Of a stretch of DNA of 64,000 nt, positions 14,064 through 45,313 are shown piece after piece (position 1 is the first letter of the stretch; every line of letters starts with the position of its first letter). The translations under genes were made by a program, and so were the position numbers. Below the pieces are notes generated by a model. That model was given only the letters and a program-made list of their open reading frames with translations, was not told where the DNA came from and made no database searches. Source of the DNA: Pseudomonadota bacterium (GTDB taxonomy: Bacteria > Pseudomonadota > Gammaproteobacteria > JAADHS01); assembly GCA_021821045.1 (NCBI GenBank), contig JAKACW010000007.1:25983-89982 (forward strand), given 5' to 3'.

Positions 14064-15299
14064 TTACTTCAGTTCAATCTGCTTTGGACTAATCGCAAGT
14101 CCATATGCGCCTTTCTTTCCGGCCGTTTCCAGCATCTTCTCAGAAATCTCGTAACGAATACCGTTCTCATCAAACACTTGCCGAGGCTCGAGCCAGCGCC
14201 GCAAGTTTTTCGGCAGATGCTCGTGAAGAATGTCATTGATACGAATGCAGCGGGAATCAAACCACGTAGTCCTCATACCGCTTTCGAGGGCTCTGATTGT
14301 TCGATCCTGGACGGGAAACCGGCGCTCGTCCAAATTCGACAGCATGTCAATCGCGTCGGTGTTGGCGAGTGTGTCATATTCGCCGACGTCGAAGCCCTCC
14401 AGGCGTAGCAATTCGTCCACGAACAGTCGTGACAAATCACTATCGTGCTCTTCTCCGGGCCGCCGCACTGTCGCCTCCCCGTCACGGGTGACCCGCGCCA
14501 GCATTCGGAAAAAGGCGTATTCGAGGGGCCCTATCTTAAGCGTCTCTTTGTGACCGTTCGCGCGATCCACGATCTGCACTTCGGCCCGGTCCGCCGGCAA
14601 ACACAGATGGATGTCATGGGGTCGATTGCCGAGGTCAAAAAGCGCCATGAGGTTCCGAAAACTCAACTGAGTCCCCAAACGCGACAACTCCTTCTCCGGC
14701 AGCTCCTCTCGCATTCGGATGAAAGGGATATCCGCCAAAACGACTTCTGCATCCTTGGGGTGAACGGTTCTTTTAAGACGGCTATTTTCAAGTACTGTGT
14801 CGTCTCGCGTCGGAAAAAAGAACCCGGGTACGCCTTCGAACTCCTCCGACACCAAAACATGGCTCAGGCAGTCCTGATGCCGCCCGAACAGGCTCATGGC
14901 ATACCCAAGATAAAAGGTCATCGTTTTCCTGCCGCCCGCGATCGATGCGTGAATGTTCACGTTGGCGTCTGTGGCAATATCCCGCACCTCCTGGGTGATG
15001 AAGTCCGCTAATGCCTCATGATCCGCGAGCGACCGGGCATCCTCGACCGGATTTCCGTTAGCGCCCGGGACGACGCGAATGTGATCGTCGCTGAACGAGG
15101 GCTGCGGCTGCTCGCACTGCGCGCAAAGGGCCGCGATTTGCCCGGCAAGCCCGCTGCTTATCGCAATGTCTTTTCCCCGCTGCGTCGTAATGATCCGGAT
15201 CGAATCCGGCCAGGCCAGCTTCTGTTTATTTATGGCGTAAAGCGTCTCCGTTACAACCGCCGGTGACAGGCCCGTCACGGCCAATAACATCGTTCTCAT
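14064..15299 (-). CDS. CRISPR-associated CARF-domain protein, Cas_NE0113 family-like
   Basis: N-terminus MRTMLLAVTGLSPAVVTETLYAI matches the signature start of the NE0113 CRISPR-associated family, which has a CARF Rossmann fold. 411 aa. Adjacent to csx1. Confidence 0.6.
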   Translation of the reverse strand: MRTMLLAVTGLSPAVVTETLYAINKQKLAWPDSIRIITTQRGKDIAISSGLAGQIAALCAQCEQPQPSFSDDHIRVVPGANGNPVEDARSLADHEALADFITQEVRDIATDANVNIHASIAGGRKTMTFYLGYAMSLFGRHQDCLSHVLVSEEFEGVPGFFFPTRDDTVLENSRLKRTVHPKDAEVVLADIPFIRMREELPEKELSRLGTQLSFRNLMALFDLGNRPHDIHLCLPADRAEVQIVDRANGHKETLKIGPLEYAFFRMLARVTRDGEATVRRPGEEHDSDLSRLFVDELLRLEGFDVGEYDTLANTDAIDMLSNLDERRFPVQDRTIRALESGMRTTWFDSRCIRINDILHEHLPKNLRRWLEPRQVFDENGIRYEISEKMLETAGKKGAYGLAISPKQIELK

Positions 15300-15450: not shown

Positions 15451-16656
15451 TCACCGCAATAGAACATCCAAAAGACTGCGCAATTCTTCGGCGACCTTCT
15501 CTTCATCCTTGGTGATCGTCGCATCACTTGCCATAGACGGTCGGTTTCCGTGGGCGAAGGCATTCCGAAATTTCGTCAAACGACCATACGCAGCACGCAG
15601 TGACTTTTCGCCCCGCTTGCCGTCATGGAATTCCGTTATTGCCTTGTCCCTGGTGGCATATTCGAACGCGCGTTCGTCGGCCCTTAACAGCGAGGTAATA
15701 AAAGCCTCCTGTGCAAATATGCACGCTCGCGGGTAGTCGCGCTGTTCAAGGAACAACCATGCCAACGATTTTTGATGAGCAACCAAATGGTTCGATTTTA
15801 CCCATGACATCCGCTCTTTTAATGCTGGCGCAAATAGCGCAGCCGTCGGTCCTAGATCACCGTCCAATACTGGCAAGAAGGTACCTAGACTCTGGCGCGC
15901 TTGGCTCACGTTGAAGGTACGTTCGTAGTATGCAGCTCTCTTGAGTGCCGCGAGTTTGTCGTCACCAATACCATCCTTCGCCAACAGCGGGACAAACACG
16001 CCGTAATCCGCGCTTTGATCGTACCGTGCAACGGCCTGCGCCCAATCCGCGAGATGCAGCAGACCACTCAGCTCATAAACCTGCGCCATGCCGGTGTCCG
16101 GATCGAAAAGACCGTAGTAAATGCCTTTAATCTGCGACTTGACGGCATCGCGCAGATAAAGGGCACTGATCAGGCCGAGCATGGGCAAGTGGCGAAAACC
16201 GTGGGTTACGTCCAATACAACCTCGTCATGTCGCGCCACGTGCGCAGCCAGCGCTCGAAGGATCTCGATCTGCTCGGCTTCGTCTTGACCGTATGGGATG
16301 AGATTGAGATGGATGGGTATGCCAACGCATTCTGACAGCAGCGGTTCCGCCCGCGCCAACAGGTCTGCAGACACCGCCTTGGCCTCCGTGGCCGCGATCA
16401 ATTCCAGCCGAAGGTCTTCGTCGCCGGTGTTTGCGGCCACAGTTTCCACGAGATGATCCCACATGCTGCCACTGGTACCGAGTATCACCAGTCTCTCGGG
16501 CTGGATCCGATTGCGCAGCGCCCAGCCAAAGAACGCTGTGGGTTCCGCCTCGACGCTGTCGGCGAAGCAGTAGCGTGTCTTGCGGTAACCATCGACACCT
16601 TTAGGAGAACGACCAAGAAAGCTGATCTGTACGCGTGCCAATGCTACTCCCTCCAA
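15451..16656 (-). CDS. csx1: Csx1 family CARF-HEPN ribonuclease (Cas_DxTHG)
   Basis: DVTHGFRH (DxTHG motif). C-terminal HEPN R-x4-H motif in KFRNAFAHG. 401 aa. Confidence 0.8.
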   Translation of the reverse strand: MEGVALARVQISFLGRSPKGVDGYRKTRYCFADSVEAEPTAFFGWALRNRIQPERLVILGTSGSMWDHLVETVAANTGDEDLRLELIAATEAKAVSADLLARAEPLLSECVGIPIHLNLIPYGQDEAEQIEILRALAAHVARHDEVVLDVTHGFRHLPMLGLISALYLRDAVKSQIKGIYYGLFDPDTGMAQVYELSGLLHLADWAQAVARYDQSADYGVFVPLLAKDGIGDDKLAALKRAAYYERTFNVSQARQSLGTFLPVLDGDLGPTAALFAPALKERMSWVKSNHLVAHQKSLAWLFLEQRDYPRACIFAQEAFITSLLRADERAFEYATRDKAITEFHDGKRGEKSLRAAYGRLTKFRNAFAHGNRPSMASDATITKDEEKVAEELRSLLDVLLR

Positions 16657-20791: not shown

Positions 20792-20792
20792 C

Positions 20793-22376
20793 TCATGCCC
20801 CGCTTGTCTGCTGATCCATCCACTGCGACCATGCCCGCTTCCACGTCTCGAGACGATCGCCGATCTCGCCAAAGTCGAATCGATCGTCCGCCGATTGCTT
20901 GCTTTGCACTACCCGCGTCTGACCTGACTCGTCCTGCCACTGCCACTCGATCATCGACACCTCGACGGTGCCGTAACCCCGGTTGGCACCAAAGCCGAAC
21001 TTGAGCCATCCTTCGCACCAATCGCGCATGACCGCGAACAACAGCGTGGCCGCCACTTCATCGGTCACCCCATCACTGCCCTCGCGCCCCAGACGCAAGC
21101 GCAATTCGATCGGCTCCCACTCGACACCATAGGGTTCAATCGCGGAGTACAGGGCACCGTCCACGGGCGCGGCGGTCCAGCGATCGACGGCAACATGAAA
21201 AGCCTGTTCGAACCCGGGGATGCGCTGGCCGAGCCGCTGGCCGAACGTTCCATGAATGTCAGCGGACTCCCCGCCCTTGGCAGAGGCCAGCCAATCCCAA
21301 TCGTTCCGGTCGATAGCCACATTCGACGAATAACAGCTGCCTATTCCCAACCAGCCGCGCGCGCCGCTGTCGAGGCTGACCGCTGACTCACCTCCCTTTT
21401 TGATCTTCTTGCCGCGCGCATGACCGAACAAGTCCGTGACGATGGGCGCATCGAGCTGCGCCAAATGACGCTCACCCACCCGCACGCTTTCCCAGCCTTC
21501 AGCACCGAGTCCCAATACGGTGCGCACGATTCTCTCGGCCTGGGCGCGCAACACGCCCTTGATCGAACTACCGGGCAGCACCAGTCGCAGCTTGGCGCCA
21601 TCCGCGGACATCAAGGGAAGCATGTCCACGGCCAGGCCGTCCTGGCCCGCCATGACCATCAAAGGGCCTTTCGGCTGCCAATGCACGCGCACCGTCAACG
21701 TGCGGGAATTCACCGGCCGGACAGCCGCAGCCTGACTCCACAATTCCTTATCCGCGCCATCACTCTCCCGGCGCAACACGGCCAGCACGCCCGTACGACT
21801 GGTCCAATCCTGCTCGCGACATTGCGCCTCCAGCAGTTCAACGCGCGCCAGACCGCGCGTCGAGCCGGCACCGATGCCGATCTCCCGCCGCTCCAACGCC
21901 GTCTTCAAATGCCACAACAGTGCGCGCCCCTCGTCCGCCATTGCATCATTTGACGCATCCAGACGCACGCAGAAACTGAACTGTGTCCCCCGCGGCAACA
22001 CCATGCGCTCATACTTGACCCTCGTCGCCGCCACGCCGTACTGGCGGTCGATGCCGTTGCCGTGCCAAACCTCCGGCACCGGGTCCCCCCTGGCCACGGC
22101 ATCATCGACGATGATGCGGCTGGCCGAACCTACATCGCTGCCCCATTGGATGCCACCCCACAGGGATGTCGGCCCGTCCTCATCGCCAACATGACCGCGC
22201 GCCCACTCGCGCAACGCCCCGGTCAACGATGTCCCTGGAATGTAATAGCGCCCTTGGCCGTTCATGCTCAGCGGCATGTCGACCTCCAGCCCGTCATCGG
22301 CCGAGCCCACATGCAGTGGATCGATGGCACGGAGCGTGCCCGTCAGAATGAGACGTCTCGCTAACGATCTCGCCAT
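20793..22376 (-). CDS. Double Cas7 (RAMP) fusion protein
   Basis: Two RAMP modules: LTGTLRAIDPLHVGS...RYYIPGTSLTGALRE and LRLVLPGSSIKGVLRAQ. C-terminal G-rich loop GFGANRGYGTVEV. Confidence 0.7.
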   Translation of the reverse strand: MARSLARRLILTGTLRAIDPLHVGSADDGLEVDMPLSMNGQGRYYIPGTSLTGALREWARGHVGDEDGPTSLWGGIQWGSDVGSASRIIVDDAVARGDPVPEVWHGNGIDRQYGVAATRVKYERMVLPRGTQFSFCVRLDASNDAMADEGRALLWHLKTALERREIGIGAGSTRGLARVELLEAQCREQDWTSRTGVLAVLRRESDGADKELWSQAAAVRPVNSRTLTVRVHWQPKGPLMVMAGQDGLAVDMLPLMSADGAKLRLVLPGSSIKGVLRAQAERIVRTVLGLGAEGWESVRVGERHLAQLDAPIVTDLFGHARGKKIKKGGESAVSLDSGARGWLGIGSCYSSNVAIDRNDWDWLASAKGGESADIHGTFGQRLGQRIPGFEQAFHVAVDRWTAAPVDGALYSAIEPYGVEWEPIELRLRLGREGSDGVTDEVAATLLFAVMRDWCEGWLKFGFGANRGYGTVEVSMIEWQWQDESGQTRVVQSKQSADDRFDFGEIGDRLETWKRAWSQWMDQQTSGA

Positions 22377-22396
22377 GACTAGTAGCCCCCTCCCAA

Positions 22397-24676: not shown

Positions 24677-25044
24677 GCTGATTTCCCTTCTGCACGCTCA
24701 ACCGTGTTTTCAGGCACGAAGAACGGAATCGAGACCAACGCATCAAGGAACCGTGTCACTCTGGTCGGCGGCTCGCCCTGCGCCGGCCCATCATCGAAGA
24801 ACAGCCCGCCCTTGCCAAACACTGCGTCAAGCTCCTTATAACGATGCCGAAGCAAGTCGAGCCTCGCCTCAGCGGTCGCGCCGCTGCGCATCAACTCAAA
24901 GCGCAACCCGTGGAGCTGACTTGCTGGAACATTGCTGCGACCGCTGTCCCTATCACGAGCCAGCATGGCCGCAGCCATGCGGCGCAGATCGCCCAGACGG
25001 TGCTGGGCTACCCATCGCGCCGAGTCCTCGCGCATGCCCGCCAA
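24673..25044 (-). CDS. Small alpha-helical protein; candidate Cas11 (small subunit)
   Basis: 123 aa between the Cas10-like gene and the RAMP genes. ATGA overlap with the downstream gene. Call is by position and size only. Confidence 0.3.
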   Translation of the reverse strand: MAGMREDSARWVAQHRLGDLRRMAAAMLARDRDSGRSNVPASQLHGLRFELMRSGATAEARLDLLRHRYKELDAVFGKGGLFFDDGPAQGEPPTRVTRFLDALVSIPFFVPENTVERAEGKSA

Positions 25045-25086
25045 TCTTTCGGCCGGCGTTACGACATAAGGTCCTGCAAAAAGTCT

Positions 25087-26409
25087 CTACGTGATCGCCT
25101 GACCACCGGCATCGCACTGCTGTTCAAGCTGCGAGCGCAGGTCATCGAGCCCAGTGAATGAAGCGTCGAATAACACATGGAAGTCCAGTGACGAACATGG
25201 ATATGGTCTGTCGTCTCCGTCTGCGGTTCGGACCCGCTGCTTAACCGGATCCTTGGCCTGCTTGATCAATTCGGAAGCCAATTCATAAGCGCTGAAGAAC
25301 GGAAACTGCGGCTTGACGATCGCCACGCCGGCGCCCGCGCCGAGATAAGACACGCCGAATGCCCGCTTGGCGATCTCGGAACTGGTCGGTCCCTGTGCGA
25401 TAGCATCTTCGAAAGCGGCCAGATACGTTTCGGTGAACTCCAGCGCGTAAACGCCGTCGATCAGCACCGTGAGATCATCACCGCCCACCACCAGGGGAAC
25501 GACCGGCAAAATGCTCTTGGACTTTCGCCGCCGACGTGGATGGGGCCGCTTCGCCAGAAGCTTACAGGCCTCCGTGAAAGCCTGCTCAGCGGCCGCATCG
25601 ATGTCCAGCGAAAATTCGCGGAAGGTTTGAAGGTAGGCGGATTTGTCATCGCCGCAATACTTCTCGAAGTTCAAGATGATCTGTCCGAACCCGCTCCCGT
25701 CGGCATGCACCACGGCCAGCCAGTCAGCACCCAAATCATCGATCTGATCGGCCAGCTCCAATTCTCTGCTGGATTCGTCGACCGACCGGATCATCCTGAG
25801 GGCGCGATCACGCCACTTCTTTCGAACTTCCTGATCCGACTTCGACACACACATCTGCGAAGTCGTCTCGCCACCGTCAGGACGATTCGCCGCGCCACCG
25901 GAGTGGGCGCAGGGCGCAACGAAAGGCAAACGGGCGAAGCGTGCCAGCGGCTGCGGCCGCGTCGAGCGAATCTGGTTGAACCGCTGATGAAGCTGCACCA
26001 TCACCTGCGGCAGCTTAAGCGGGTCATCGAATTCTTGAATCGCACCGCACACATCCAGGCCCGGCGCCTCTTGCAACGCCCGCAACGTCACGGCCTCGAT
26101 GACGTTCTCTGCCTTATCCTTTGCATCAGTCACAAACAAGGCCTTGCCGGATACCGCGGTGACGACTTCAAAGCCACCCTGGGCACCCGGCTGGCGCAGC
26201 GGCGTGCGCTGCTGACGCAATTTCTCTCGCATCCGTTGGGGGTCGTCGCTCCAGAAACTGGCCCCCCCATTCTCCGCGATGGCTTCCAGCACCCATTGCG
26301 TTCCGGCTCGGTAGATCAGCTCCGAGGCACCCACGTTTTCCCGCAGTTTGTTGGTCGCGAAAACGTAGCTTTGATTACCCGAAGTTTCGATCAGAACAAG
26401 AAACGGCAT
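25087..26409 (-). CDS. cas10: Compact Cas10-like Palm/cyclase protein lacking an HD domain (GGDD motif)
   Basis: Palm strand LAVVHADGSGFGQI and catalytic VVGGDDLTVLIDG. Possible degenerate N-terminal palm FLVLIETSGNQSYVF. No HD motif. Only 440 aa. Confidence 0.6.
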   Translation of the reverse strand: MPFLVLIETSGNQSYVFATNKLRENVGASELIYRAGTQWVLEAIAENGGASFWSDDPQRMREKLRQQRTPLRQPGAQGGFEVVTAVSGKALFVTDAKDKAENVIEAVTLRALQEAPGLDVCGAIQEFDDPLKLPQVMVQLHQRFNQIRSTRPQPLARFARLPFVAPCAHSGGAANRPDGGETTSQMCVSKSDQEVRKKWRDRALRMIRSVDESSRELELADQIDDLGADWLAVVHADGSGFGQIILNFEKYCGDDKSAYLQTFREFSLDIDAAAEQAFTEACKLLAKRPHPRRRRKSKSILPVVPLVVGGDDLTVLIDGVYALEFTETYLAAFEDAIAQGPTSSEIAKRAFGVSYLGAGAGVAIVKPQFPFFSAYELASELIKQAKDPVKQRVRTADGDDRPYPCSSLDFHVLFDASFTGLDDLRSQLEQQCDAGGQAIT

Positions 26410-26557
26410 ACCCCTCCTTTCATCCCAACAACGAACTCGTCGTCATCACTTTGTTAGCACCGCACAGCGGACTGCTCGACTTGGGGACCGTGCTGGCTTT
26501 TCGTTTTGGGCATGACCTTACCAAAACCACGATTGATTACCAATCCCCTGAGCTAAA

Positions 26558-27409
26558 CTAATCCCGCTGGGGGCTTCCCTTTCCGCGACATACCGTTTCC
26601 CCCAAGAACACCACGCCCTCGTAGACTTCGCATACTCGCGTTTTGCGCGCATTCAATTGCAGCCCGAGCCGCCGCAACGCCTTCTCCGCCAACGCGTGGG
26701 CCGTTCGGGAAGAGTCCACGTCTGGCGTCATCAACAAAAAATCATCCGCATAGCGCACAAACGTAATGTTCGCTCGCGCCATTGCGCGATCAAATGCATG
26801 TAAGTAAAGGTTGCACAGAAACGGCGAAATCACGGCCCCTTGCAGCAAACCGCGCCTACCCTGAAGCAGGCCCGAGGTATGAGGCCCTACGTCCAACCAG
26901 GCCTTTACCAAGTTTAAGAGCCAACGATCGCCGAAAGTTCGCTTTACCATGCGCAAGAGAGGGCCATGCGGCACCCGATCGAAGAACTTTTCGATATCGG
27001 CGTCCACCACCCAACGCAACCCCGTATGCACCCGTTCCCGGACTTTCCGCAACGCATGAGGCACACCCCGACCGGGCCGATAGCCGAAGCTGTCGTGATG
27101 GAAGAACGCTTCCGCTCGCGGCTCCAGCACTTGCAGAATCAATCGCTGGGCAAATTTGTCGCGCCGATATTGGGCCGACAGCACGCGCCGTCCCCCATCG
27201 CCCTTTTTCACGGCCCATTGGCGGATCGGCAGCGGCCGATACCGGCCCTCGCGCAACTCTTCGACAATCGTCAACAGATGAAACGGCGAATTCTTCTGCA
27301 AATCTTGCTCCTCGGTACCGGGTGCCCAAGGCGCCGCATCATTGCGCAGCACGCGCCACGCTTGCTTCACATTCGCCGCACAAAGCGCCGTGGTCATGAT
27401 ATCGCCCAT
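26558..27409 (-). CDS. Reverse transcriptase (group II intron-like RT domain, no maturase or endonuclease)
   Basis: RT motifs FGYRPGRGVPHA, WVVDADIEKFFDRV, AVISPFLCNLYLH, YADDFLL, LQLNARKTRV. Second Met at 27397 forms an ATGA overlap with the cas1 stop. Confidence 0.85.
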   Translation of the reverse strand: MGDIMTTALCAANVKQAWRVLRNDAAPWAPGTEEQDLQKNSPFHLLTIVEELREGRYRPLPIRQWAVKKGDGGRRVLSAQYRRDKFAQRLILQVLEPRAEAFFHHDSFGYRPGRGVPHALRKVRERVHTGLRWVVDADIEKFFDRVPHGPLLRMVKRTFGDRWLLNLVKAWLDVGPHTSGLLQGRRGLLQGAVISPFLCNLYLHAFDRAMARANITFVRYADDFLLMTPDVDSSRTAHALAEKALRRLGLQLNARKTRVCEVYEGVVFLGETVCRGKGSPQRD

Positions 27410-28413
27410 GGGTTTTCTTCCTCGCTTCGGCCGAGGACTTTCTGAAAATCGTTGACCACGCCCCTCGCTGCCGTGTCGATGGATTGCTCCTCGGCAACCT
27501 GATCGTCTGCGGTCTCGCCCGGCTGCTCAGCTTGGCGCGCACGCGCCGGCCACTGATCGCACCACAGTCGCCACGCACCATAAAAGCGTGAGCGTGCTTC
27601 CTTCGATAAACGGCAGCCTTCGTGGTCGCTCAGTGTGAAATCCGCCGGTGTTACTTGGCCATCTAACAACCGCAGCACGAAAAGATCCACGCCTGGACGC
27701 AACGCCTCCATCAAGTCGAGCGACAATCCCGGCCGTGCCGGCGCCACTTCATGCAAAAACCCGAGATAGGGATCAAACCCCGCGGCGCACGCTTGGCGAT
27801 GCACCACTCCCAGAGCAAGCGTATAGCCCAACGACAGCATCGCATTCACCGGATCGCGCGGGGGTCGCCGATTGCGCGATTCGAACATCCAATGGGGCGC
27901 CATTTGCGATCGCAGCCAGGCATACCACGCTTTCGCGGCCCGCCCTTCGACGCCCATCAACGCCGCATTGTCCCGAGCCAAAGCCGTATCTTGTTGGCAT
28001 TGGGTCAGAATCGCGCTGCACTCCTGGCCGATTCCCAATCGCTGCAATAGATCACAACCGGCCGCCAACTTCTCCCGCACCATCCAACGTGCCAGAACAA
28101 GACGCCGCCCAAGTTCCTGATATGCGCGGTACTGCCGGGCCCGCCAGTGCACGAAAGAACTCAGGCCACTTCCCAGCCAACACACCTCCCCCTTGCCCCG
28201 CGCCGGCATCAGCGCCACGGGTACGGCACTGTCCGCCAACGCGCGCCATACATCGCAGCGAACCGACGGACTACCGTACACCACCACCGATCCGAGCACC
28301 GCAAGTGGCACCCGTTTAAACGCACCATCGGCGTAATCGATGCGCAAAGCCTTGTTCTCGACGCTGACACTCAGATCGCGCCTGTCGAGTATCAGCGTCA
28401 ACCCGCCGCTCAT
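27394..28413 (-). CDS. cas1: CRISPR-associated endonuclease Cas1
   Basis: Start MSGGLTLILDRRDLSVSVENKALRI. Conserved RRPPRDPVNAMLSLGYTLAL Cas1 motif. The track ORF extends further upstream to 28530. Confidence 0.85.
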   Translation of the reverse strand: MSGGLTLILDRRDLSVSVENKALRIDYADGAFKRVPLAVLGSVVVYGSPSVRCDVWRALADSAVPVALMPARGKGEVCWLGSGLSSFVHWRARQYRAYQELGRRLVLARWMVREKLAAGCDLLQRLGIGQECSAILTQCQQDTALARDNAALMGVEGRAAKAWYAWLRSQMAPHWMFESRNRRPPRDPVNAMLSLGYTLALGVVHRQACAAGFDPYLGFLHEVAPARPGLSLDLMEALRPGVDLFVLRLLDGQVTPADFTLSDHEGCRLSKEARSRFYGAWRLWCDQWPARARQAEQPGETADDQVAEEQSIDTAARGVVNDFQKVLGRSEEENPWAIS

Positions 28414-28760
28414 GCCGCCCTCCCGAAACCGGCCAGCAACCGGGCCAGTAACGACGCCCTTTCGGGTTCCGCGGTCGCCGCCACTTCCGCCACAGGCTGC
28501 CCGGGGCTTGCCATGGCATCGTTCAGCCACAAGCCCGCCGGATGCGGAACGGGATACGCACGCAAGTCGTCTTCAGCAAGATCCATCAGCCCGCTGACTT
28601 CATCGAGAACCTGGGTCAGCCCGTTGCGGTTCGCGCACACCAGGAACACCGATTCCTGTAAAGCCATGCCACGGCGCGAAATGCAGCGATGCACCCGTTG
28701 CAACCGACGCGAGTCGCAAATGTCATAGGACACCAAATGCCAGCGCTTCGAAAAGTCCAT
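28410..28760 (-). CDS. cas2: CRISPR-associated endoribonuclease Cas2 (paralogue a)
   Basis: WHLVSYDICDSRRLQRVHRCISRRGMALQESVFLVC...EDDLRAYPV fits the Cas2 fold signature. Stop overlaps the cas1 start. Confidence 0.7.
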   Translation of the reverse strand: MDFSKRWHLVSYDICDSRRLQRVHRCISRRGMALQESVFLVCANRNGLTQVLDEVSGLMDLAEDDLRAYPVPHPAGLWLNDAMASPGQPVAEVAATAEPERASLLARLLAGFGRAA

Positions 28761-28777
28761 GTTTGATCTCCTTTTCT

Positions 28778-29062
28778 TTAAGCCACGTGCAGCCAGCGGC
28801 GGAACAGACTGTCCTGGTCACCCACGCCCCGTCCGTTGACTTCCGCATTGGGCGACAACCAAGCCAGCATCAACTTGTCCCCTTGCGGATCGATCAGCTC
28901 CAGGAGCTGTACGTACAACTCCTCGGCCTCCTTGTGGTTGAGTAAGCACTCGTGCACGGACTTCTGCCCGTCGATGCGCCACTGCTGAAGGCGTTTATGA
29001 ACACGCCGACGGCGAACGGGGTTGCCGATGTCGTACGCGATGATGGCGGGTTTGCGTTTCAT
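28778..29062 (-). CDS. cas2: CRISPR-associated endoribonuclease Cas2 (paralogue b)
   Basis: MKRKPAIIAYDIGNPVRRRRVHKRLQQWRIDGQKSVHECLL...GDKLMLAWL (Cas2-like). Start chosen at MKRKP. Confidence 0.65.
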   Translation of the reverse strand: MKRKPAIIAYDIGNPVRRRRVHKRLQQWRIDGQKSVHECLLNHKEAEELYVQLLELIDPQGDKLMLAWLSPNAEVNGRGVGDQDSLFRRWLHVA

Positions 29063-29133
29063 ATGTTTTCCTCCGGTGGTTGTGATCTTGTGAATGACGC
29101 ACATCGTATGCGCCACAGCTCGGTTCAGGGCGT

Positions 29134-29149
29134 TTCGCAAGCTTGCGAA
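29134..29149. promoter_or_regulatory. Perfect 16-bp palindrome TTCGCAAGCTTGCGAA between cas2b and the CRISPR leader; candidate operator
   Basis: Seen directly. A near-identical copy TCGCAAGCTTGCGA lies at 31524-31537 on the other flank of the array. Confidence 0.35.
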
Positions 29150-29296
29150 GTTTCGCCGCGCCGATGGCGTGGAATTCCGCGGGTTGCCGGCGAGCCGTCC
29201 GCGCTTGACTGGCGAGGCGACGATTGAGGTAGAATTCCGCGCATCGACCTTTGTTCTTTTACAATTTGAAACTGAACGCGCTGCGCGAGCACATCA

Positions 29297-29330
29297 CCGG
29301 CCGCGAAAAAGCTAACTTTTTCGCGGCCGG
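29297..29330 (+). terminator. Perfect 15-bp-stem hairpin followed by TTGACT and a T-rich tract; intrinsic-terminator-like element at the leader boundary
   Basis: ccggccgcgaaaaag-ctaa-ctttttcgcggccgg then ttgactcaaaattttttggtt, seen directly. Confidence 0.4.
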
Positions 29331-29393
29331 TTGACTCAAAATTTTTTGGTTACTAAGCTATTGATTGAGCCGCGGTTTGGAAATGTGACAAGG

Positions 29394-31506
29394 GTTCAAA
29401 CGTGTCCCTGACGAAGAAGGGATTGAGACTTTTTTGCTTGAGCAACGCCTTGCGGGTCGGCGTTCAAACGTGTCCCTGACGAAGAAGGGATTGAGACCTC
29501 ACGGTTTTCGAGTTCATACCGGGAGACGAAGTTCAAACGTGTCCCTGACGAAGAAGGGATTGAGACCTCTGAGCGCGTCCTGTTGGCAAGGTTGCTGGCG
29601 TTCAAACGTGTCCCTGACGAAGAAGGGATTGAGACAGGACGTGGTCGTCTGCGCGGCAAGCGCGCAGGGTTCAAACGTGTCCCTGACGAAGAAGGGATTG
29701 AGACCAAAACGCCTCGTCCCCAAGCAACACAAAGTGGTTCAAACGTGTCCCTGACGAAGAAGGGATTGAGACCCCGGCATTTGCTACCTTGCGGCAGCGC
29801 CTGTTGTTCAAACGTGTCCCTGACGAAGAAGGGATTGAGACCCAGCGCGGCTTGCGCGATGGAAATCTCGCTTGGTTCAAACGTGTCCCTGACGAAGAAG
29901 GGATTGAGACAGGCAGTTGTTGTCACATCAGCCACCCGACAAAGGTTCAAACGTGTCCCTGACGAAGAAGGGATTGAGACGAAAAACGCAGCCCCAACCA
30001 GTCTCCGGCATTTGTTCAAACGTGTCCCTGACGAAGAAGGGATTGAGACGCCCGCGTCGGCCCTCACTCCGGTTAACGGCCGGTTCAAACGTGTCCCTGA
30101 CGAAGAAGGGATTGAGACCAGGGCGGCCTCACGCCCTCTTGTGTCTTCGAGGTTCAAACGTGTCCCTGACGAAGAAGGGATTGAGACGCGTAGCGTCGAG
30201 AGGTCGCGCTTGATCTGTCGGTTCAAACGTGTCCCTGACGAAGAAGGGATTGAGACTATTTTCGCTTGCGCGAGAGCGTTGCCGCTCTGTGTTCAAACGT
30301 GTCCCTGACGAAGAAGGGATTGAGACTAGGGTGTTCGGCGTCGCAAATGTGGACTGGGTGTTCAAACGTGTCCCTGACGAAGAAGGGATTGAGACCGCGA
30401 ATGCAGCGCGAGGGTCAATGTAAGTTGGTTCAAACGTGTCCCTGACGAAGAAGGGATTGAGACTTGATCTCAGAACATGAGGTCGCTGCGGCGTTAGGTT
30501 CAAACGTGTCCCTGACGAAGAAGGGATTGAGACCAGGGCCAATTCACCATCAAAGATGGCTTGAGCGTTCAAACGTGTCCCTGACGAAGAAGGGATTGAG
30601 ACGGAGGGTTCATGCATCGGTGGATCTCCTTTGAAGTTCAAACGTGTCCCTGACGAAGAAGGGATTGAGACGAAGAGGACGAGGCCGGGGGCATCGCAGG
30701 CATTCGTTCAAACGTGTCCCTGACGAAGAAGGGATTGAGACAGCTTCCATCGTTTTATGGAAGCGGCGGATCTAGGTTCAAACGTGTCCCTGACGAAGAA
30801 GGGATTGAGACTTCGAGTACAAAACGGTATGTGGTGTTTTCCAGGTTCAAACGTGTCCCTGACGAAGAAGGGATTGAGACTCGAAGATCCACTCTTTATT
30901 CCTCTTGATAGAGTTCAAACGTGTCCCTGACGAAGAAGGGATTGAGACCCTTCCCCGCCGCCCTGTCCTTCGCCCGACTCTGTTCAAACGTGTCCCTGAC
31001 GAAGAAGGGATTGAGACGTTCACTGGGGGCTAGCCCAGTGAGCCAGTGCGGTTCAAACGTGTCCCTGACGAAGAAGGGATTGAGACATACGAAACGGAGA
31101 CGCCATCGCTGGCTCGAGGGGTTCAAACGTGTCCCTGACGAAGAAGGGATTGAGACGCCAACATACCGCACCGCATCCAGGAACCCTAGAGTTCAAACGT
31201 GTCCCTGACGAAGAAGGGATTGAGACTTGTCCTTCTCGAGCTGCAGCAGGACGCAGTTGGGTTCAAACGTGTCCCTGACGAAGAAGGGATTGAGACACTT
31301 CGGCTTCGGCCTCGAAGGGTGTCTCCGAGGGTTCAAACGTGTCCCTGACGAAGAAGGGATTGAGACTCACAAACAAGGTCGTAGAACGCAGTTTTGCGGG
31401 TTCAAACGTGTCCCTGACGAAGAAGGGATTGAGACTGGTCCGTCGGGACTCCGCAACGATCTCAAAGATGTTCAAACGTGTCCCTGAAAAAAAGGCGACA
31501 AACATT
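29394..31506 (+). CRISPR. CRISPR array: 31 direct repeats (30 intact of 36 bp plus 1 degenerate terminal) and 30 spacers of 32-35 bp
   Basis: Repeat GTTCAAACGTGTCCCTGACGAAGAAGGGATTGAGAC at 29394, 29462, 29531, 29600 ... 31400. Terminal degenerate copy at 31471 (GTTCAAACGTGTCCCTGAaaaaaaggcgacaaacat). AT-rich leader 29331-29393 on the cas2 side. Repeat 3' end ATTGAGAC resembles the type III 8-nt crRNA tag. Confidence 0.97.
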
Positions 31507-31523
31507 CGCGTCCCGCTCCCATC

Positions 31524-31537
31524 TCGCAAGCTTGCGA
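31524..31537. promoter_or_regulatory. Palindrome TCGCAAGCTTGCGA immediately after the degenerate terminal repeat; candidate operator
   Basis: Seen directly; mirrors the site at 29134-29149. Confidence 0.3.
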
Positions 31538-31639
31538 ATGCTCGCGCATGAACCGCTTGTTTTATGCTTGGAGCAGAGCGAGCCGTGGCGGCCGCTTCGA
31601 GCCGGGTACGCACCGCGGCCGGTTAAGGGAAAAGAAACT

Positions 31640-31897
31640 ATGCTTCGTTGCGGCAACTCAATCCGTCTCACCGGCCCCGAATTGGCGGGCCTGGCCAAAA
31701 TCGCCGGCGTTTACCCGGAGAAGATCAACTCGCTCAATGATCTCAGGCGGTTTATTAACCGTCGGCTGCGCGTCTACTGCGGGCCTTCGCCGGAAGAGCG
31801 ATTGTTGCGTGCGCTGCTCATCGAGGAACTGAATCGGTATCGGGATCCGGGCGGCAGGGTGCCGGCCCCACAGTGCGTGGAAAAGGACCACTCATGA
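31640..31897 (+). CDS. Hypothetical small protein (about 85 aa, from MLRCGNSIRLTG)
   Basis: ORF downstream of the array. No family recognised. Confidence 0.2.
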   Translation: MLRCGNSIRLTGPELAGLAKIAGVYPEKINSLNDLRRFINRRLRVYCGPSPEERLLRALLIEELNRYRDPGGRVPAPQCVEKDHS

Positions 31898-32178
31898 ACG
31901 GCTATGACATCATCGGCGACATACACGGCCACGGCGCCGAGGACCAGCGCGGGGTGCTTGCCATCGTGCGGCCTGTGGTGAATTGTGGAAGCGCGCTTGC
32001 GGTGATGGGAAATCACGAATTCAATGCCGTGTGTTTTCACACTCGCCATCCCGAATCCGGCCGCCCTCTGCGCGACCATACGCCAAAGAACCTGACGCAG
32101 CATCAAAGCTTCTTACAACAGTTTCCTCATCCCGCTCGGGATTTATACCCAGAACTTTTCGGACATCCGCCAGGGTGA
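31894..32178 (+). pseudogene. Truncated calcineurin-like metallophosphoesterase (ApaH/PrpE-like) N-terminal fragment
   Basis: MNGYDIIGDIHGHG...VMGNHEFN has GDxHG and GNHE motifs. It lacks the GDxxDRG motif and stops after ~95 aa, where full-length enzymes are about 220-250 aa. Confidence 0.45.
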
Positions 32179-33703
32179 CGCGCCCCGCGCCGACATTGCC
32201 TTCGCCATCCCTTGCTTGCCGCAACATGACTGCCCGCGCGAGGGCTTCACTCAGTTTGCGCATGTCGCGCGCGTTTCCCGACCTTGGGTCGCGCCTGTTG
32301 TAAAGGCTCTGAATATGTCGTTCGAGCGGTGCCCGCCCGCTCTTCTGCAGCGCAATCCCCTCCGCGTCAAGGTCCGCCTCGAGAATAGCCATTAACTGCG
32401 CCGGTGCGTAATCGGAAAACGCCTCGTGTTCAGTGAATCGCGATCTCAGGCCGGGATTGGCTTCGACGAACTTCGCCATGTTCTCCGTGTAACCCGCGGC
32501 CACCACCACGAACTGGCCGCGGCAGTCCTCCATTTTTTTGAGCAGCGTCTCAATTGCCTCGGGCCCAAAGTCCCATGGGGCATCCTTCACCAAGGCGTAG
32601 GCTTCGTCGATAAATAGCACTCCGCCCATGGCGCGCTCGATGGCATCGGCGGTATTCAATGCCGTTTGCCCCACGAAGCCTGCAACAAGCTTGCTGCGAT
32701 CGACTTCGTGAAGATGACCGCGCTCGAGCAGACCGAGCGCGCCGTAGATATTCGCCAGAATCCGCGCGACCGTGGTCTTGCCCGTACCGGGATTCCCGGA
32801 GAAAACCCAATGGTGAACCAGCCTTTTCAAGTAATCCGGATTGTGGCGACGCGCATAACGAACCAGTTCGATGGTCTCATGGATCTTCTGCTTGAACGAA
32901 TCCAGGCCCACCATTGCATTCAATTCGTCCATAGCCTCTTTTAGTCGGGGCTCGTCGATGGGCGCCTGCCAGTATTTGGGCTCGTGCTCGTCACGGACAG
33001 CGATGATGTCCTGCGCTACGATTTGGGATAGTTGCGTGACGCGCTCTCGTTCGGGCAAGTCCATGCATCGAGTGCTGTGCATTATGATCGCCCTTTCGAT
33101 CAACAGCCGGGCATAACGACCGTTAGCGTGGAGGCGGTCTCGCGCGCGATACGCGTCGTTGAAGTTCTGCTCGAGCTCGGAAACGGCGCCATCGCTCAAT
33201 ACAAAATCCTGTTGGGCAGCAATCGCTCGCGCGATCTTCACCATATCCTCGGGCGTGTAATCGTCGAACGTCATGTCAAACCCAAAACGCCCCTTCAAGC
33301 CCGGATTCGATTCCAGGAACGCATTCATTTCGGCAGTGTAGCCCGCGCAAATCACTACCAATCGATCACGGCGGTTTTCCATTTCCTGAACCAGTACGTC
33401 AACCACCTGCTTGCCGTAGTCGACGCCGTTGTTGGAGTTCAGCGCATAGGCTTCGTCAATAAATAGCACGCCGTCCATTGCCTGCTCGATAGCGGACTTG
33501 ATCTTTTCCTCTGTGCCGCCGACGTTCACGCTCACCAGTTCGGCGCGGCCGACTTCCACGACATGACCCCGCTTGAGCAGGCCCAGATCACGCAAAATGG
33601 GACCGACCAGCCGAGCGACCGTGGTCTTTCCCGTACCGGGGTTGCCTTTGAACACGCAGTGTAGATTGAGCGAGGTCTCCCTCAGGTTGCGCCGCTTGCG
33701 CAT
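32021..33703 (-). CDS. Tandem AAA+ ATPase (two CbbX/SpoVK-family modules). As sequenced it is separated by a frameshift from its N-terminal membrane domain.
   Basis: Two copies of GNPGTGKTTVAR (Walker A), GVLFIDEAYAL (Walker B), CAGY/AAGYT and NPGLKGRF/NPGLRSRF modules. 560 aa. Confidence 0.8.
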   Translation of the reverse strand: MRKRRNLRETSLNLHCVFKGNPGTGKTTVARLVGPILRDLGLLKRGHVVEVGRAELVSVNVGGTEEKIKSAIEQAMDGVLFIDEAYALNSNNGVDYGKQVVDVLVQEMENRRDRLVVICAGYTAEMNAFLESNPGLKGRFGFDMTFDDYTPEDMVKIARAIAAQQDFVLSDGAVSELEQNFNDAYRARDRLHANGRYARLLIERAIIMHSTRCMDLPERERVTQLSQIVAQDIIAVRDEHEPKYWQAPIDEPRLKEAMDELNAMVGLDSFKQKIHETIELVRYARRHNPDYLKRLVHHWVFSGNPGTGKTTVARILANIYGALGLLERGHLHEVDRSKLVAGFVGQTALNTADAIERAMGGVLFIDEAYALVKDAPWDFGPEAIETLLKKMEDCRGQFVVVAAGYTENMAKFVEANPGLRSRFTEHEAFSDYAPAQLMAILEADLDAEGIALQKSGRAPLERHIQSLYNRRDPRSGNARDMRKLSEALARAVMLRQARDGEGNVGAGRVTLADVRKVLGINPERDEETVVRSFDAASGSLAYGRAEGGRIRDGECENTRH

Positions 33704-34366
33704 GTCGGCAACACGAGCACGATTGTATAGGTTGTTTTGACGGACTCTATTCCGATGAGCGCCTCCAGCCGCGCCATTGCTTCCTTGCCGTCCATGGTCG
33801 GCGTGTTTGGCACGGGTTCGGCTTTGGCGGCAGAGGCCGGCTGTTCGACCGGCATTGGCTGCGAACGCATCTCAGCCTGCGGCAAATAGGTGCGACGGGC
33901 GGCTTGAAAGGCCATCCGCTCGCGCTCATTCTTGATGTGCCTCCACGAGATCCACCCGATAATGAGCGCAATAAGAACGGTCTCCGTGTTGGCGAAGAAC
34001 ATCACGATAGAGAAGACCAGAGCCGCCCAAGCAACCCAATAGCTCAAGCCGGGCGAGAAGGCCGGATCGCTCCGGCGAAGCAAACGCACCATCCCCGCGA
34101 GTTTCTCAAGCATCAGCAGAACCAGCCAACCCACGGCCCACACCAAGCCGACGCGCAAACCCAGCAAGTAACTCACCGTTAACTCCATACCCGCCGCGGC
34201 CCGTACACGCTCTTGTAGAACAGCCGGATCGGGAACAAGGTAAAGCAAGGCGAACGTTCCCAGCACGAAGGCTGCAAGATTCCTCCCGACGAAGTCGAGA
34301 ACGGCTTTTACGCGAGGCGTTGACACGTAAGGATTCTCCTTTGCTGGGTGACCGAGTGAAGGGCGC
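33682..34366 (-). CDS. N-terminal membrane segment (about 4 TM helices) of the same AAA+ protein, out of frame with it
   Basis: Translation MRPSLGHPAKENPYVSTPRVKAVLDFVGRNLAAFVLGTFALLYLV... ends ...EAMARLEALIGIESVK. This aligns with EAMDELNAMVGLDSFKQK preceding the second AAA module. Frame restores with +1 A in the A4 run of gtcAAAAcaacc (by codon walk, about 33700-33715). Confidence 0.5.
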
Positions 34367-34396
34367 ATTACATCACGGCCGGGGCGACTCGCTGCG

Positions 34397-34412
34397 ATTC
34401 GAAAGCTTGTGA
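34397..34412. promoter_or_regulatory. TTCGAAAGCTTGTGAA palindrome-like motif. With CAAGCTTG copies at 34476-34483 and 34519-34526 it lies in the divergent promoter region between the membrane-AAA+ gene and csx16.
   Basis: Seen directly. Confidence 0.3.
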
Positions 34413-34590
34413 ACCGCGATCCCGTGAAGCCTTCACGACTATTAAAGCCGACACAACCGCCACCGCGGGGATTAACAAGCTTGCATGACGCCCGCCAGGA
34501 ATCGCTCGGGGCGATCGGCAAGCTTGTGGAGGGTCAATGATTCTCCAGAAAATCCCATAATGGTTTCTCAACACGTGCCAGGGAGGAACC

Positions 34591-34965
34591 ATGACTGTAT
34601 TTTTCGTATCCAGACATAAGGGTGCCGTGGGGTGGTCGGCGCAACACGGGCTACGCGTCGACACGCTAGTGGACCATTTGGATCCGCAGGAAGTCCATGA
34701 GGGCGATACGGTGATCGGTTCGTTGCCATTGCATCTGATCGCGAAGGTCTGCGAGCGCGGCGCCCGCTTCCTTCATTTGGCCATCGACATTCCCGCTCAG
34801 TGGCGCGGGCAAGAACTCACGGCGGAGCAGCTTAGTCAGGCGGACGCGCGGCTGGAGGAATATGTGGTACGCAGAATCGGAAAGAATCGCGGTAGGAAAC
34901 CGCTCCCACAACGAACTGAGCTTCCCTTGTGGGAGCGGATCATTCCGCGATTGAATCGGCAGTAG
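34591..34965 (+). CDS. csx16: Csx16-like (Cas_VVA1548 family-like) small CRISPR-associated protein; candidate ring nuclease
   Basis: N-terminus MTVFFVSRHKGAVGWSAQHGLRVDTLVDHLD resembles the FxSRHxGAxxW start I recall for Csx16. The last ~28 codons are supplied by REP repeat sequence starting at 34878. Confidence 0.45.
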   Translation: MTVFFVSRHKGAVGWSAQHGLRVDTLVDHLDPQEVHEGDTVIGSLPLHLIAKVCERGARFLHLAIDIPAQWRGQELTAEQLSQADARLEEYVVRRIGKNRGRKPLPQRTELPLWERIIPRLNRQ

Positions 34966-35110
34966 CGCCAAGTCAGGAGAGAATCGCGGTAGGAAACCGC
35001 TCCCACAACCAACTGGGCTCCCCCCGTGGGAGCGGATCATTCCGCGATTGAATCGGCAGTAGCGCCAAGTCAGGAGAGAATCGCGGTAGGAAACCGCTCC
35101 CACGACATTG
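34878..35110. repeat. Cluster of REP-like elements including a tandem duplication of a ~95-bp composite unit
   Basis: gaatcgcggtaggaaaccgctcccacaa...gtgggagcggatcattccgcgattgaatcggcagtagcgccaagtcaggagagaatcgcggtaggaaaccgctcccacaaccaactgggctccccccgtgggagcgg... repeated twice. Confidence 0.85.
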
Positions 35111-35132
35111 CGCCGTCCACAGAGACACCGCT

Positions 35133-36527
35133 CTACTTGCGGGCGACGAATTTTTTCAGGCGCTTGCGCTTTTGGATTTGGCGCTTGGTGAGGACGTTCT
35201 TGCGACCCTTGTACGGATTCTCGCTGGTGCGAAACTCCACACGCACCGGCGTGCCGTAGAGCTTGAATGCTTCGCGAAAGACATTGCCGAGGTAGCGGGC
35301 GTACGGCGCCGGCACCAGCGCGGTTTGGTTGCCGTGGATCACGATCAACGGCGGCATGCTGCCGCCTTGGTGAGCGTAGCGCAATTTGATGCGCCGTCCG
35401 CGCACTAATGGCGGCTGGTGCTGCACCATGGCGGCTTCCAGAACCCGATTCAACTCCGGCGTCGTGAACTTGCGCGTCGCCGCCGCGTAGGCGGAATCGA
35501 TCGACGAGTACAACTCACCGACGCCCGTGCCGTGCAAGGCCGAAATGTAATGCACCTTGGCGAAATCCAAGAAATCCAGCTTGCGATCCACGTCGTTGCG
35601 CGCGTGCTGGCGCTGGTCGGGCGTGAGGCCGTCCCATTTGTTGAGCGCGATTACCACGGCGCGACCGCTGTCGAGCACCATGCCCGCCAAGTTCAAATCC
35701 TGATCGGTAACGCCTTCCCGCGCGTCGAGCACGAGCACGACGACATGGGCGGCTTCGATGGCTTGAATGGTTTTCGCGACGCTGAACTTCTCCACCACGT
35801 CATCGATCTTGCCGCGACGGCGCACGCCGGCGGTGTCAATGATTACGTAGGGCCGTTCATCGCGAGTGAAGTTGATGGCGATACTGTCGCGGGTGGTTCC
35901 CGGCTTGTCGAACACCAACACCCGCTCTTCGCCGAGAATCCGATTCACCAGTGTCGACTTGCCGACATTGGGTCGGCCGACCACCGCGAAACGCAGCGCG
36001 TCCGGTTGGGCATCGGCGACAATGTCTTCACCCGGCGGCGGCAGCGAACGCGCCACCGCCTCGGACAACTGATCGACACCCTTACCCGCAGTGGCGGCGA
36101 TAGCGATCACATCGCTGAAACCCAGGGTGAGGAAATCGCTGATGGCTTCGACGTTGTTCAGATGCTCCGTTTTGTTCACCGCCAGAAAACACGGTTTGCC
36201 CGAACGACGGATCATCTGAGCAATCGTCTCGTCCGCGGCAGTCATCCCGGCTTGACCGTCGACGAGAAATACAATGGCACTTGCCTCGGCCATGGCGCGT
36301 TGCGCCTGCGCGGTCATGAGATCCTGGAAATCATCCTCGGCGTCCGCCAACCCGCCCGTATCCACCACGATGCAGGGTCGCCCGCCAAGTTGCGCGCGGC
36401 CGTAAATTCGATCGCGGGTCAGGCCGGGGCGATCGTACACCAACGCATCGCGAGAGCCCGTCAGGCGGTTGAACAGCGTGGATTTGCCGACATTAGGACG
36501 GCCGATGAGCGCGACAACAGGGAGCAT
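35133..36527 (-). CDS. der: Ribosome-associated GTPase Der (EngA)
   Basis: Two GTPase domains (GRPNVGKSTL twice) and a KH-like C-terminus. 464 aa. Confidence 0.95.
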   Translation of the reverse strand: MLPVVALIGRPNVGKSTLFNRLTGSRDALVYDRPGLTRDRIYGRAQLGGRPCIVVDTGGLADAEDDFQDLMTAQAQRAMAEASAIVFLVDGQAGMTAADETIAQMIRRSGKPCFLAVNKTEHLNNVEAISDFLTLGFSDVIAIAATAGKGVDQLSEAVARSLPPPGEDIVADAQPDALRFAVVGRPNVGKSTLVNRILGEERVLVFDKPGTTRDSIAINFTRDERPYVIIDTAGVRRRGKIDDVVEKFSVAKTIQAIEAAHVVVLVLDAREGVTDQDLNLAGMVLDSGRAVVIALNKWDGLTPDQRQHARNDVDRKLDFLDFAKVHYISALHGTGVGELYSSIDSAYAAATRKFTTPELNRVLEAAMVQHQPPLVRGRRIKLRYAHQGGSMPPLIVIHGNQTALVPAPYARYLGNVFREAFKLYGTPVRVEFRTSENPYKGRKNVLTKRQIQKRKRLKKFVARK

Positions 36528-37685: not shown

Positions 37686-37744
37686 AACGATTTCCAGAAA
37701 CGCACCATCGCGAAACGACGCTGTGGCATTCTCGTTGTGGGAGC

Positions 37745-37826
37745 GGTTTCCTACCGCGATTCTTCGTCCGATTCGTTTACAAAGCCAAGTCGATCGCGGA
37801 ATCATCCGCTCCCACATTGGTTGGCG
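37745..37826. repeat. REP-like inverted-repeat element
   Basis: tgtgggagcggtttcctaccgcgatt ... atcgcggaatcatccgctcccaca. Confidence 0.8.
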
Positions 37827-42754: not shown

Positions 42755-42777
42755 CGAATACCTTCAGTCGGCGCTGT

Positions 42778-42842
42778 TGTGGGAGCGGTTTCCTACCGCG
42801 ATTCGCACCGGAGTCAATCGCGGAATGATCCGCTCCCACAAA
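42778..42842. repeat. REP-like inverted-repeat element
   Basis: tgtgggagcggtttcctaccgcgatt ... aatcgcggaatgatccgctcccaca. Confidence 0.8.
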
Positions 42843-45228: not shown

Positions 45229-45313
45229 TCGCTGTGGGAACGGTTTCCTACCGCGTTTCATCGATCGAAACATCTCTAGTGCCGAGTCGATCGCGGAATG
45301 ATCCGCTCCCACA
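45229..45313. repeat. REP-like inverted-repeat element
   Basis: tgtgggaacggtttcctaccgcgttt ... atcgcggaatgatccgctcccaca. Confidence 0.8.

Follow-up and report, generated by a model that had tools for sequence, protein, structure and literature searches.

The window analysed here is a stretch of 64,000 nucleotides from a Pseudomonadota bacterium (GTDB lineage Gammaproteobacteria; JAADHS01), positions 25,983 to 89,982 of contig JAKACW010000007.1 in assembly GCA_021821045.1, and it holds a type III-D variant CRISPR locus. The gene in question lies on the minus strand at 32021..34326, between the CRISPR array (29394-31500) and csx16 (34591-34965), that is, directly beside the type III locus. When intact it encodes one membrane-anchored tandem AAA+ ATPase of 771 amino acids (aa), and in the window it is split into a 214-aa open reading frame (ORF; 34326..33682, minus strand) and an overlapping 560-aa ORF (33703..32021, minus strand). 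Its parts are the following.

32021..34326, minus strand: the whole AAA+ gene, with the two ORFs, their frames and the Shine-Dalgarno sequence; a gap of 10 nt is the sole difference from the intact allele, which encodes P0122
33949..34299, minus strand: N-terminal membrane domain, residues ~10-126, four predicted transmembrane (TM) helices, predicted N-in/C-in
33790..33948, minus strand: Pro/Ala-rich linker, residues 127-179, of which 135-171 are predicted disordered by a predicted local distance difference test (pLDDT) score <50
33729..33730, minus strand: deletion junction, where the intact allele has ATTCGCCAGC, i.e. codons I200, R201 and Q202 and the first base of L203
32957..33789, minus strand: first AAA module (D1), lid included, residues 180-460; Walker A at 33623-33646; VLFIDEAY, AGY and NPGLKGRF; pore loop 1 SVNVGG
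32150..32953, minus strand: second AAA module (D2), lid included, residues 462-729; Walker A at 32774-32797; VLFIDEAY, AGY and NPGLRSRF; pore loop 1 AGFVGQ
32021..32149, minus strand: C-terminal tail and stop codon, residues 730-771, predicted disordered, with low confidence from residue 711

Two reading frames of one gene

The upstream ORF contains the four TM helices, the linker and the first helix of AAA module 1, and the downstream ORF contains two PF00004 and two AAA_lid_6 domains, one lid after each module, with Walker A motifs at its residues 20 and 303. The helix left behind in the upstream ORF, EAMARLEALIGIESVK, has its counterpart in EAMDELNAMVGLDSF before module 2 in the alignment. 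An earlier note on this DNA, made from the letters and the ORFs, had proposed two complete AAA+ modules in the 560-aa ORF, the missing helix of module 1 and about four TM helices in the ORF before it, and a single tandem, membrane-anchored gene of the CbbX/SpoVK type with a frameshift; all of this agrees with our results, and the intact 771-aa form exists. Judged from their sequence, the two ORFs are thus halves of one gene and not two genes.

The likely start of the gene is GTG 34326, which is preceded by AAGGAG with a 9-nt spacer and is picked by the gene callers in all assemblies, and less so ATG 34368. A scan of 31400-35200 for promoters and terminators turned up nothing that resembles a promoter, and sites resembling terminators were no more frequent than background. 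The gene has a TGGCAC motif upstream, which was considered as a sigma-54 site and rejected, because the spacing does not fit.

A deletion of ten bases

The protein cluster at 90% identity that contains the 560-aa ORF also holds the 214-aa product and the 771-aa protein P0122 (VKTTIRQLYNRARV), which is encoded on contigs of two sequencing runs (L004, SRR33230236; L005, SRR33230277). These contigs equal the window base for base over the gene and its flanks, save the ten bases that are present in them between 33730 and 33729 of the window. At this site the sequence of the intact protein is VKTTIRQLYNRARVADM, and its alignment with EccA1, CbbX and P0110, a tandem relative, shows no gaps. One extra A in the A4 run, which the earlier note had suggested as the repair, does fuse the frames, but it gives VKNNLYNRARV and a product of 768 aa, three residues short of the spacing in CbbX, EccA1 and P0110. 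The gapless alignment of the one and the shortfall of the other indicate that the intact allele is ancestral and that the window carries a 10-bp deletion. It lies just 3' of the A4 run, which is at 33735-33738 and not at about 33700-33715 where the fusing site had been placed, with at most 1 bp of microhomology, and it falls inside the N-terminal helical hairpin ahead of the D1 Walker A.

One alternative is that sequencing or assembly went wrong at the homopolymer and that the organism really has an intact gene; one added A does restore a long ORF. The difference from the intact allele is however a ten-base block outside the homopolymer, and the helix made by the added A is shorter by three residues than in every aligned relative. 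The same deletion is moreover found in an ENA assembly (L001, ERZ27237524), an NCBI assembly (L002, GCA_027343985.1) and a Logan assembly (L003, SRR13304626), which were made with different assemblers and are identical to the window outside the CRISPR array. They may share one sample, and we count them as evidence on assembler artefacts and not as independent populations. An identical deletion from three assembly sources makes an artefact unlikely, and taken together the points above leave an error at the A4 run extremely improbable.

The interruption could also be regulatory, in that phase variation or programmed ribosomal frameshifting would yield full-length protein from the broken allele. 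Both frames are open over an overlap of ~190 nt, and the A4 run is close by. There is however no repeat tract at the indel, and the shift needed is -1, for which inspection of the sequence from the A4 run onward found no slippery heptamer (X XXY YYZ). Even with such a shift the three residues of the conserved spacing would be missing, and the intact allele simply has ten more bases. The lack of a repeat tract and of a slippery heptamer makes phase variation and programmed frameshifting very unlikely where it does not rule them out, and we give the regulatory reading hardly any credence. Among the three options that the earlier note had left side by side, the inactivating mutation is therefore the one that stands, and homopolymer error and regulated expression fall away.

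A third alternative is that the split is tolerated: both products, the membrane stub of 214 aa and the soluble tandem ATPase of 560 aa, would be made and would still work, jointly or apart. ATG 33703 is situated 22 nt before the upstream stop codon, which makes coupled reinitiation conceivable, and Walker A and B are kept in both modules. No Shine-Dalgarno sequence was found ahead of this ATG by inspection, of the hairpin's two helices the 560-aa product has lost the first and half of the second, and the split is seen in no relative; P0110, the sole relative aligned over its full length, keeps the hairpin in both modules. We regard a tolerated split as improbable. At best, the window allele would give a crippled pair, a membrane stub of 214 aa and a soluble ATPase of 560 aa lacking part of the nucleotide-binding hairpin. 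By all appearances the AAA+ gene of the window haplotype is a recent pseudogene, made so by a frameshifting 10-bp deletion.

The two AAA+ modules

Against the family models the 771-aa protein matches TIGR02881 (SpoVK) best (E=3e-141, 468.9 bits), well outside what chance would give, with EccA and CbbX as the next-best models, and its matches in the PDB are CbbX and EccA1 at E~1e-45, with 38-40% identity. The SpoVK-EccA-like clade's signatures, which have been defined as a hairpin, a GY motif, an Asn before the arginine finger and a sensor-2 arginine (PMC11513918), are found in both modules. The Walker motifs GNPGTGKTT and VLFIDEAY are present in each, the AGY of D1 and D2 aligns with the AGY of CbbX and EccA1 as the GY of sensor 1, and the Asn stands four residues before the arginine-finger position in D1 as well as D2. 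The first Arg of the D1 motif NPGLKGRF has become Lys, as in both modules of P0110, with the second Arg kept, and D2 reads NPGLRSRF. The sensor-2 arginines lie in ANGRYAR (D1) and GNARDMR (D2), which in the alignment stand opposite GNGRYAR in EccA1 and ANARSIR in CbbX, and an AlphaFold2 model shows the bihelical hairpin before each Walker A (helices 180-189 and 194-215 in D1, 462-474 and 479-498 in D2). The aromatic residue of pore loop 1 is absent in D1 and kept in D2. These motifs place the protein among the classical AAA+ chaperones, in the SpoVK/CbbX/EccA clade.

The model was built on 22 sequences, and its pLDDT, as means over blocks of ten residues, is mostly 83-96 in the AAA modules, falling briefly to 60-77 in a loop and where D1 joins D2, ~45-60 in the membrane domain and ~30 in residues 711-771. 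Foldseek returned CbbX as the top match, followed by p97, Cdc48, Rix7 and NVL, which span both modules. D1 and D2 share 38.7% identity, and since each is as distant from the other as from CbbX, the duplication must be old.

Within the clade, the protein fits none of the named families. It exceeds the cut-off of 422.95 for SpoVK proper (the TIGR02881 equivalog) only because its 468.9 bits are summed over two stretches, the host is a gammaproteobacterium by the relatives of its der gene, and the N-terminus is a domain of four TM helices, where SpoVK proper has a small beta-rich domain ahead of its single module. The score for CbbX (TIGR02880) is 386.3 against a cut-off of 459.25, and what lies next to the gene is a CRISPR array, a phosphoesterase remnant and csx16, not Rubisco genes. 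For EccA (TIGR03922) it is 411.8 against 466.65, with a match limited to profile positions 270-550, the AAA part. FtsH does not fit either, as there is no peptidase domain and a second AAA module follows D1. A phage family of unknown function in PHROGs, phrog_4339, matches the AAA module of P0122 (E=4e-66), and phages thus also carry ATPases of this clade.

The motif GNVGAGRVT, which MAFFT had placed as a possible vestigial third Walker A in the tail, was rejected as such. It stands only ~25 residues after sensor 2, within the D2 lid, its RVTLADV matches the lid-end motif, and BLAST gave E=1.2.

Membrane domain and C-terminal end

Hydropathy and the model place hydrophobic helices at about residues 13-33, 49-72, 91-110 and 109-125, and the N-in/C-in topology follows the positive-inside rule, with positive charges on the predicted cytoplasmic side. 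The N-terminal 195 aa had no phmmer match among 1.84 billion representatives, no Pfam family reached its threshold for the membrane domain (there was only a sub-threshold match to DUF4190), and the model of the N-terminal part found no meaningful fold match in the PDB with Foldseek.

The C-terminal tail has no counterpart in CbbX, EccA1 or P0110 when aligned with them, and the last ~48 codons of the gene run antisense to a remnant of another gene.

31894-32178, plus strand: metallophosphoesterase remnant; residues 17-90 match plasmid metallophosphoesterases, up to E=7e-11, with homology extending to ~32164

Being antisense to this remnant, the tail is probably not native; it is probably an accident of rearrangement. 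The remnant ORF stops after 94 residues and, judged by eye against motifs usual for this family, presumably also lacks an internal stretch. The overlap with the remnant suggests that the AAA+ gene arrived by rearrangement.

The type III locus and its second lesion

The type III-D variant locus extends over 14064-28530 on the minus strand and comprises fused RAMP proteins (759, 550 and 861 aa), Csx19, a short Cas10 without HD domain, and Cas6. Two CARF proteins are encoded in it, Csx1 (CARF-HEPN, 15451..16656) and a CARF5/NE0113 protein (14064..15299). Cas1, upstream, and a reverse transcriptase (RT), downstream, are separate genes, and a relative has an RT-Cas1 fusion. Two cas2 genes stand beside cas1 in the gene calls on the L001 and L004 contigs (these are contig calls and not window coordinates). 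The other features needed below are these.

25087, minus strand: cas10 nonsense mutation; codon 441 TAC -> TAG (Y441*), which shortens Cas10 from 578 aa to 440 aa
29394..31500, plus strand: CRISPR array; 30 identical 36-nt repeats (GTTCAAACGTGTCCCTGACGAAGAAGGGATTGAGAC) and one degenerate terminal repeat, with 29 spacers between the identical repeats
34591..34965, plus strand: csx16; PF09652 at E=3e-35, TIGR02620, and Csx16 in PADLOC

The cas10 gene of the window is left as a 440-aa ORF (25087..26409, minus strand) and a downstream ORF of 120 aa. An intact 578-aa Cas10 (P0245) is found in the runs SRR33230236, SRR33230247 and SRR33230277; it has GGDD at residue 309 and no HD match. With cas10 a pseudogene, the type III system of the window strain is probably non-functional. 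It does keep its 31-repeat array, and those of its other cas genes that were set against family models match them over all or nearly all of their length. For annotation this means that the two AAA+ ORFs should be entered as one pseudogene, and cas10 of the window genome as another.

We compared the haplotypes over window positions 14673-29430 and 31398-34907, ~18.3 kb, against four contigs (L004, L005, L066 and L067). The intact and the broken haplotypes differ at three places: the nonsense mutation in cas10, the 10-bp deletion in the AAA+ gene, and, in the CARF5/NE0113 gene, a synonymous CTA -> TTA at 15287. Of the three, two thus inactivate a gene, which is more loss of function than neutral drift usually gives; as a rough estimate, the chance of this would be a few percent if one in ten to 15% of random changes (10-15%) inactivate. 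This suggests that loss of cas10 and of the AAA+ gene has been tolerated or favoured, and it hints at selection for losing the type III locus. It is no demonstration that the two genes share one pathway.

The array repeat ends in ATTGAGAC on the plus strand, and given the usual ends of type III repeats this would presumably fit transcription of the array toward the 3' end of the AAA+ gene. No self-targeting spacer was found within the window, where spacers gave only chance matches of 11-16 nt. On the other side, csx16 is divergent from the AAA+ gene across an intergenic region of 264 bp. The Csx16 family are ring nucleases specific for cyclic tetra-adenylate (cA4) (PMC12409355).

The last ~30 codons of csx16 run into one copy of a palindromic intergenic repeat (GTGGGAGCGG...CCGCTCCCAC) of 121 nt, which resembles the repetitive extragenic palindromic (REP) type and is seen at 9633-9753 and 34832-35146. 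Partial copies are dispersed at 6610-6669, 7583-7649, 37734-37815, 42776-42839, 45233-45312 and 47234-47262, and beside der the repeat forms tandem units of ~97 nt. We had considered the 121-nt repeat as the boundary mark of an island; with at least six further partial intergenic copies it is instead a dispersed REP-like element.

Relatives and distribution

No protein with more than 46% identity to the AAA+ protein was found in 5.8 billion clusters. Its nearest relatives by sequence are multi-module proteins of the SpoVK/Ycf46 type with 39-46% identity, namely TPR proteins with three or four AAA modules and 1100-1340 aa in length, and P0110; the latter has another N-terminal region followed by two AAA modules, and is colinear with the AAA+ protein over both. 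The TPR-type relatives P0024 and P0006 adjoin purE and DUF2807 genes in housekeeping contexts, not CRISPR loci. Scans of genomes, metagenomes and viral contigs gave no relatives of P0122, with a seeding by exact peptide patterns that detects close relatives only. Among 47 der-anchored relatives there was no AAA homologue within up to 10 kb retrieved on either side of der, and a tblastn search of plasmids gave only relatives of the CbbX, EccA and beta-helix-AAA types below 46% identity, none of which is annotated as CRISPR-associated. The closest Der has 62% identity and the closest Cas10 43%. The organism is poorly sampled, so the absence of orthologues is weak evidence either way. As far as these searches reach, the AAA+ gene is lineage-specific.

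What the intact protein might do

The explanation that we find most convincing, and consider likely, is that of one gene for a 771-aa tandem AAA+ protein with four TM helices, a lineage-specific insertion that has been broken by a 10-bp deletion. The gene would have landed between the CRISPR array and csx16, with its 3' end abutting the metallophosphoesterase remnant. By analogy with related machines, the intact protein would assemble as a hexamer into a double ring, which 24 TM helices and flexible linkers would hold to the inner membrane on its cytoplasmic side. The motor that threads the substrate would be D2, whose pore loop is canonical and aromatic and whose catalytic motifs are complete; D1, which has complete nucleotide motifs and no aromatic residue in the pore loop, might serve mainly in assembly or regulation. 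Such a machine would act at the membrane on one dedicated substrate, remodelling or extracting it and not degrading it; neither a protease domain nor a gene for a protease partner is present.

Four points weigh against this explanation. The oligomeric state, the substrate and the division of labour between D1 and D2 are drawn by analogy. The assemblies with the deletion may share a single sample, so that the allele may be less widespread than their number suggests. The 560-aa ORF could still be made by reinitiation and have some activity. Finally, that two of the three differences between the haplotypes hit cas10 and the AAA+ gene, which lies between bona fide CRISPR elements, is easier to understand if both belong to one costly pathway.

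The last point leads to the alternative that the intact protein is an undescribed ancillary factor of the type III system. As a membrane effector, it could use its ATP-driven ring to perturb the membrane or to pull a membrane protein out of it when the system fires; as a TRIP13-like reset factor, it could act with the adjacent cA4 ring nuclease Csx16 in switching the signal off. On this reading, its loss jointly with cas10 would come from selection against a locus that is costly or autoimmune. The gene sits between the array and csx16, divergent from the latter, and the intact locus appears competent for signalling by cyclic oligoadenylates, with its Cas10 GGDD, Csx1 (CARF-HEPN), the CARF5/NE0113 protein and Csx16. 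Membrane-bound type III effectors exist (Cam1, Csx23 and CorA; PMC11229360), and tandem ATPases of the SpoVK family have been predicted as add-ons of CoCoNuT systems (PMC11090510).

Several observations speak against an ancillary role. Pfam, NCBIfam and PADLOC find no CARF, SAVED, Csx23-type, CorA N-terminal or other sensor domain in the AAA+ protein; a novel sensor domain is possible. Co-occurrence with type III loci does not recur in what is a limited sample, as no orthologues were found and three related type III-D loci (Cas10 with ~40-43% identity) have no AAA gene in the available sequence, up to 10 kb on either side of cas10. The nearest relatives reside in the housekeeping contexts described above. 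One survey of type III accessories lists no ATPase of the CbbX/SpoVK type (PMC6546367), and in another there is no ATPase effector of any kind (PMC11229360). At its 3' end the AAA+ gene abuts a gene remnant, in a stretch that looks like a zone of rearrangement, and if cas10 was lost first, a Cas10-dependent toxin would no longer have been selected against.

The earlier note had raised a possible ancillary defence component and suggested guilt by association as a check. No orthologues turned up in the searches above, the three type III-D loci give no such association, and the housekeeping relatives and the lack of a detected sensor domain point further away from it. Only the embedded position and the inactivation alongside cas10 speak for a link to CRISPR, and we hold a real functional link between the AAA+ gene and type III immunity to be doubtful, as is the ancillary factor that would embody it. 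In its most specific form, a new type III accessory in which a membrane-tethered double-ring AAA+ remodeller acts in the cA4 pathway with Csx16, as ATP-driven effector or as reset factor, and in which the window is a natural double knock-out selected for its cost, the idea is rather unlikely. Should the gene belong to the CRISPR pathway, the type III accessories would gain their first ATP-driven unfoldase, and the paired natural alleles, with otherwise one synonymous difference over ~18 kb, would be ready-made material for testing it. With the CRISPR link unproven and the gene a singleton, the finding carries modest weight.

Comparison with known systems

We return to the explanation preferred above, a lineage-specific membrane-anchored remodeller, and to what it resembles. 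The protein shares with the SpoVK-EccA clade the hairpin before Walker A, the GY motif, NPGL(K/R)xRF and the sensor-2 arginine, all of them in both modules. CbbX, EccA and SpoVK have one AAA module each, whereas this protein has two in tandem, and where the N-termini of the clade are TPR, beta-helix, beta-prism or small SpoVK domains, here there is an anchor of four TM helices. The contexts differ as well: the immediate neighbours include neither Rubisco genes nor genes of type VII secretion, and the sporulation role of SpoVK, specific to Bacillota, is not to be expected in a gammaproteobacterium. The multi-module proteins of the SpoVK/Ycf46 type are nearest by sequence, yet their N-terminal regions are different and unrelated, and they have no membrane anchor, except P0110 with its predicted hydrophobic segments.

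In FtsH and Msp1/ATAD1 an N-terminal TM anchor is followed by a cytoplasmic classical AAA+ ring, and they are the model for how substrates are pulled at or out of the membrane. FtsH differs in having an M41 protease domain and a single AAA module, and Msp1 in having one TM helix and one module. FtsH is the sister group of the SpoVK-EccA clade and not a member of it (PMC11513918), and Msp1 is also outside the clade. The type II AAA+ unfoldases (p97/Cdc48, Rix7/NVL and Drg1) have the same tandem D1-D2 arrangement, with Foldseek alignments over both modules, but the identity is 16-19% and they are soluble, eukaryotic or archaeal proteins with N-terminal domains that bind adaptors.

Among defence systems, Cam1, Csx23 and CorA are the known membrane-bound type III effectors (PMC11229360), and they are alike in having TM helices and belonging to a defence locus. 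Each of them has a nucleotide-binding sensor domain and no ATPase, unlike the AAA+ protein with its two ATPase modules and no detectable sensor. The tandem ATPase predicted as an add-on of type III-A CoCoNuT operons, another defence system (PMC11090510), is similar as a SpoVK-family tandem ATPase in a defence context, but it has one active module, leucine-rich repeat and beta-barrel C-terminal domains, and no TM anchor. A parallel with the fusions of Csx3/Crn3 to an 'AAA' domain was considered and found weak, since the eLife paper calls the fused domain a kinase/transferase and not a classical AAA+ module.

The chaperones of the SpoVK-EccA clade are described as serving narrow sets of substrates, with a variable N-terminal domain that picks the client and no protease partner (PMC11513918). 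The protein described here, with a membrane anchor and two modules, is a new architecture within this known AAA+ clade, and such a version would extend the narrow-substrate repertoire of SpoVK, CbbX and EccA to the membrane.

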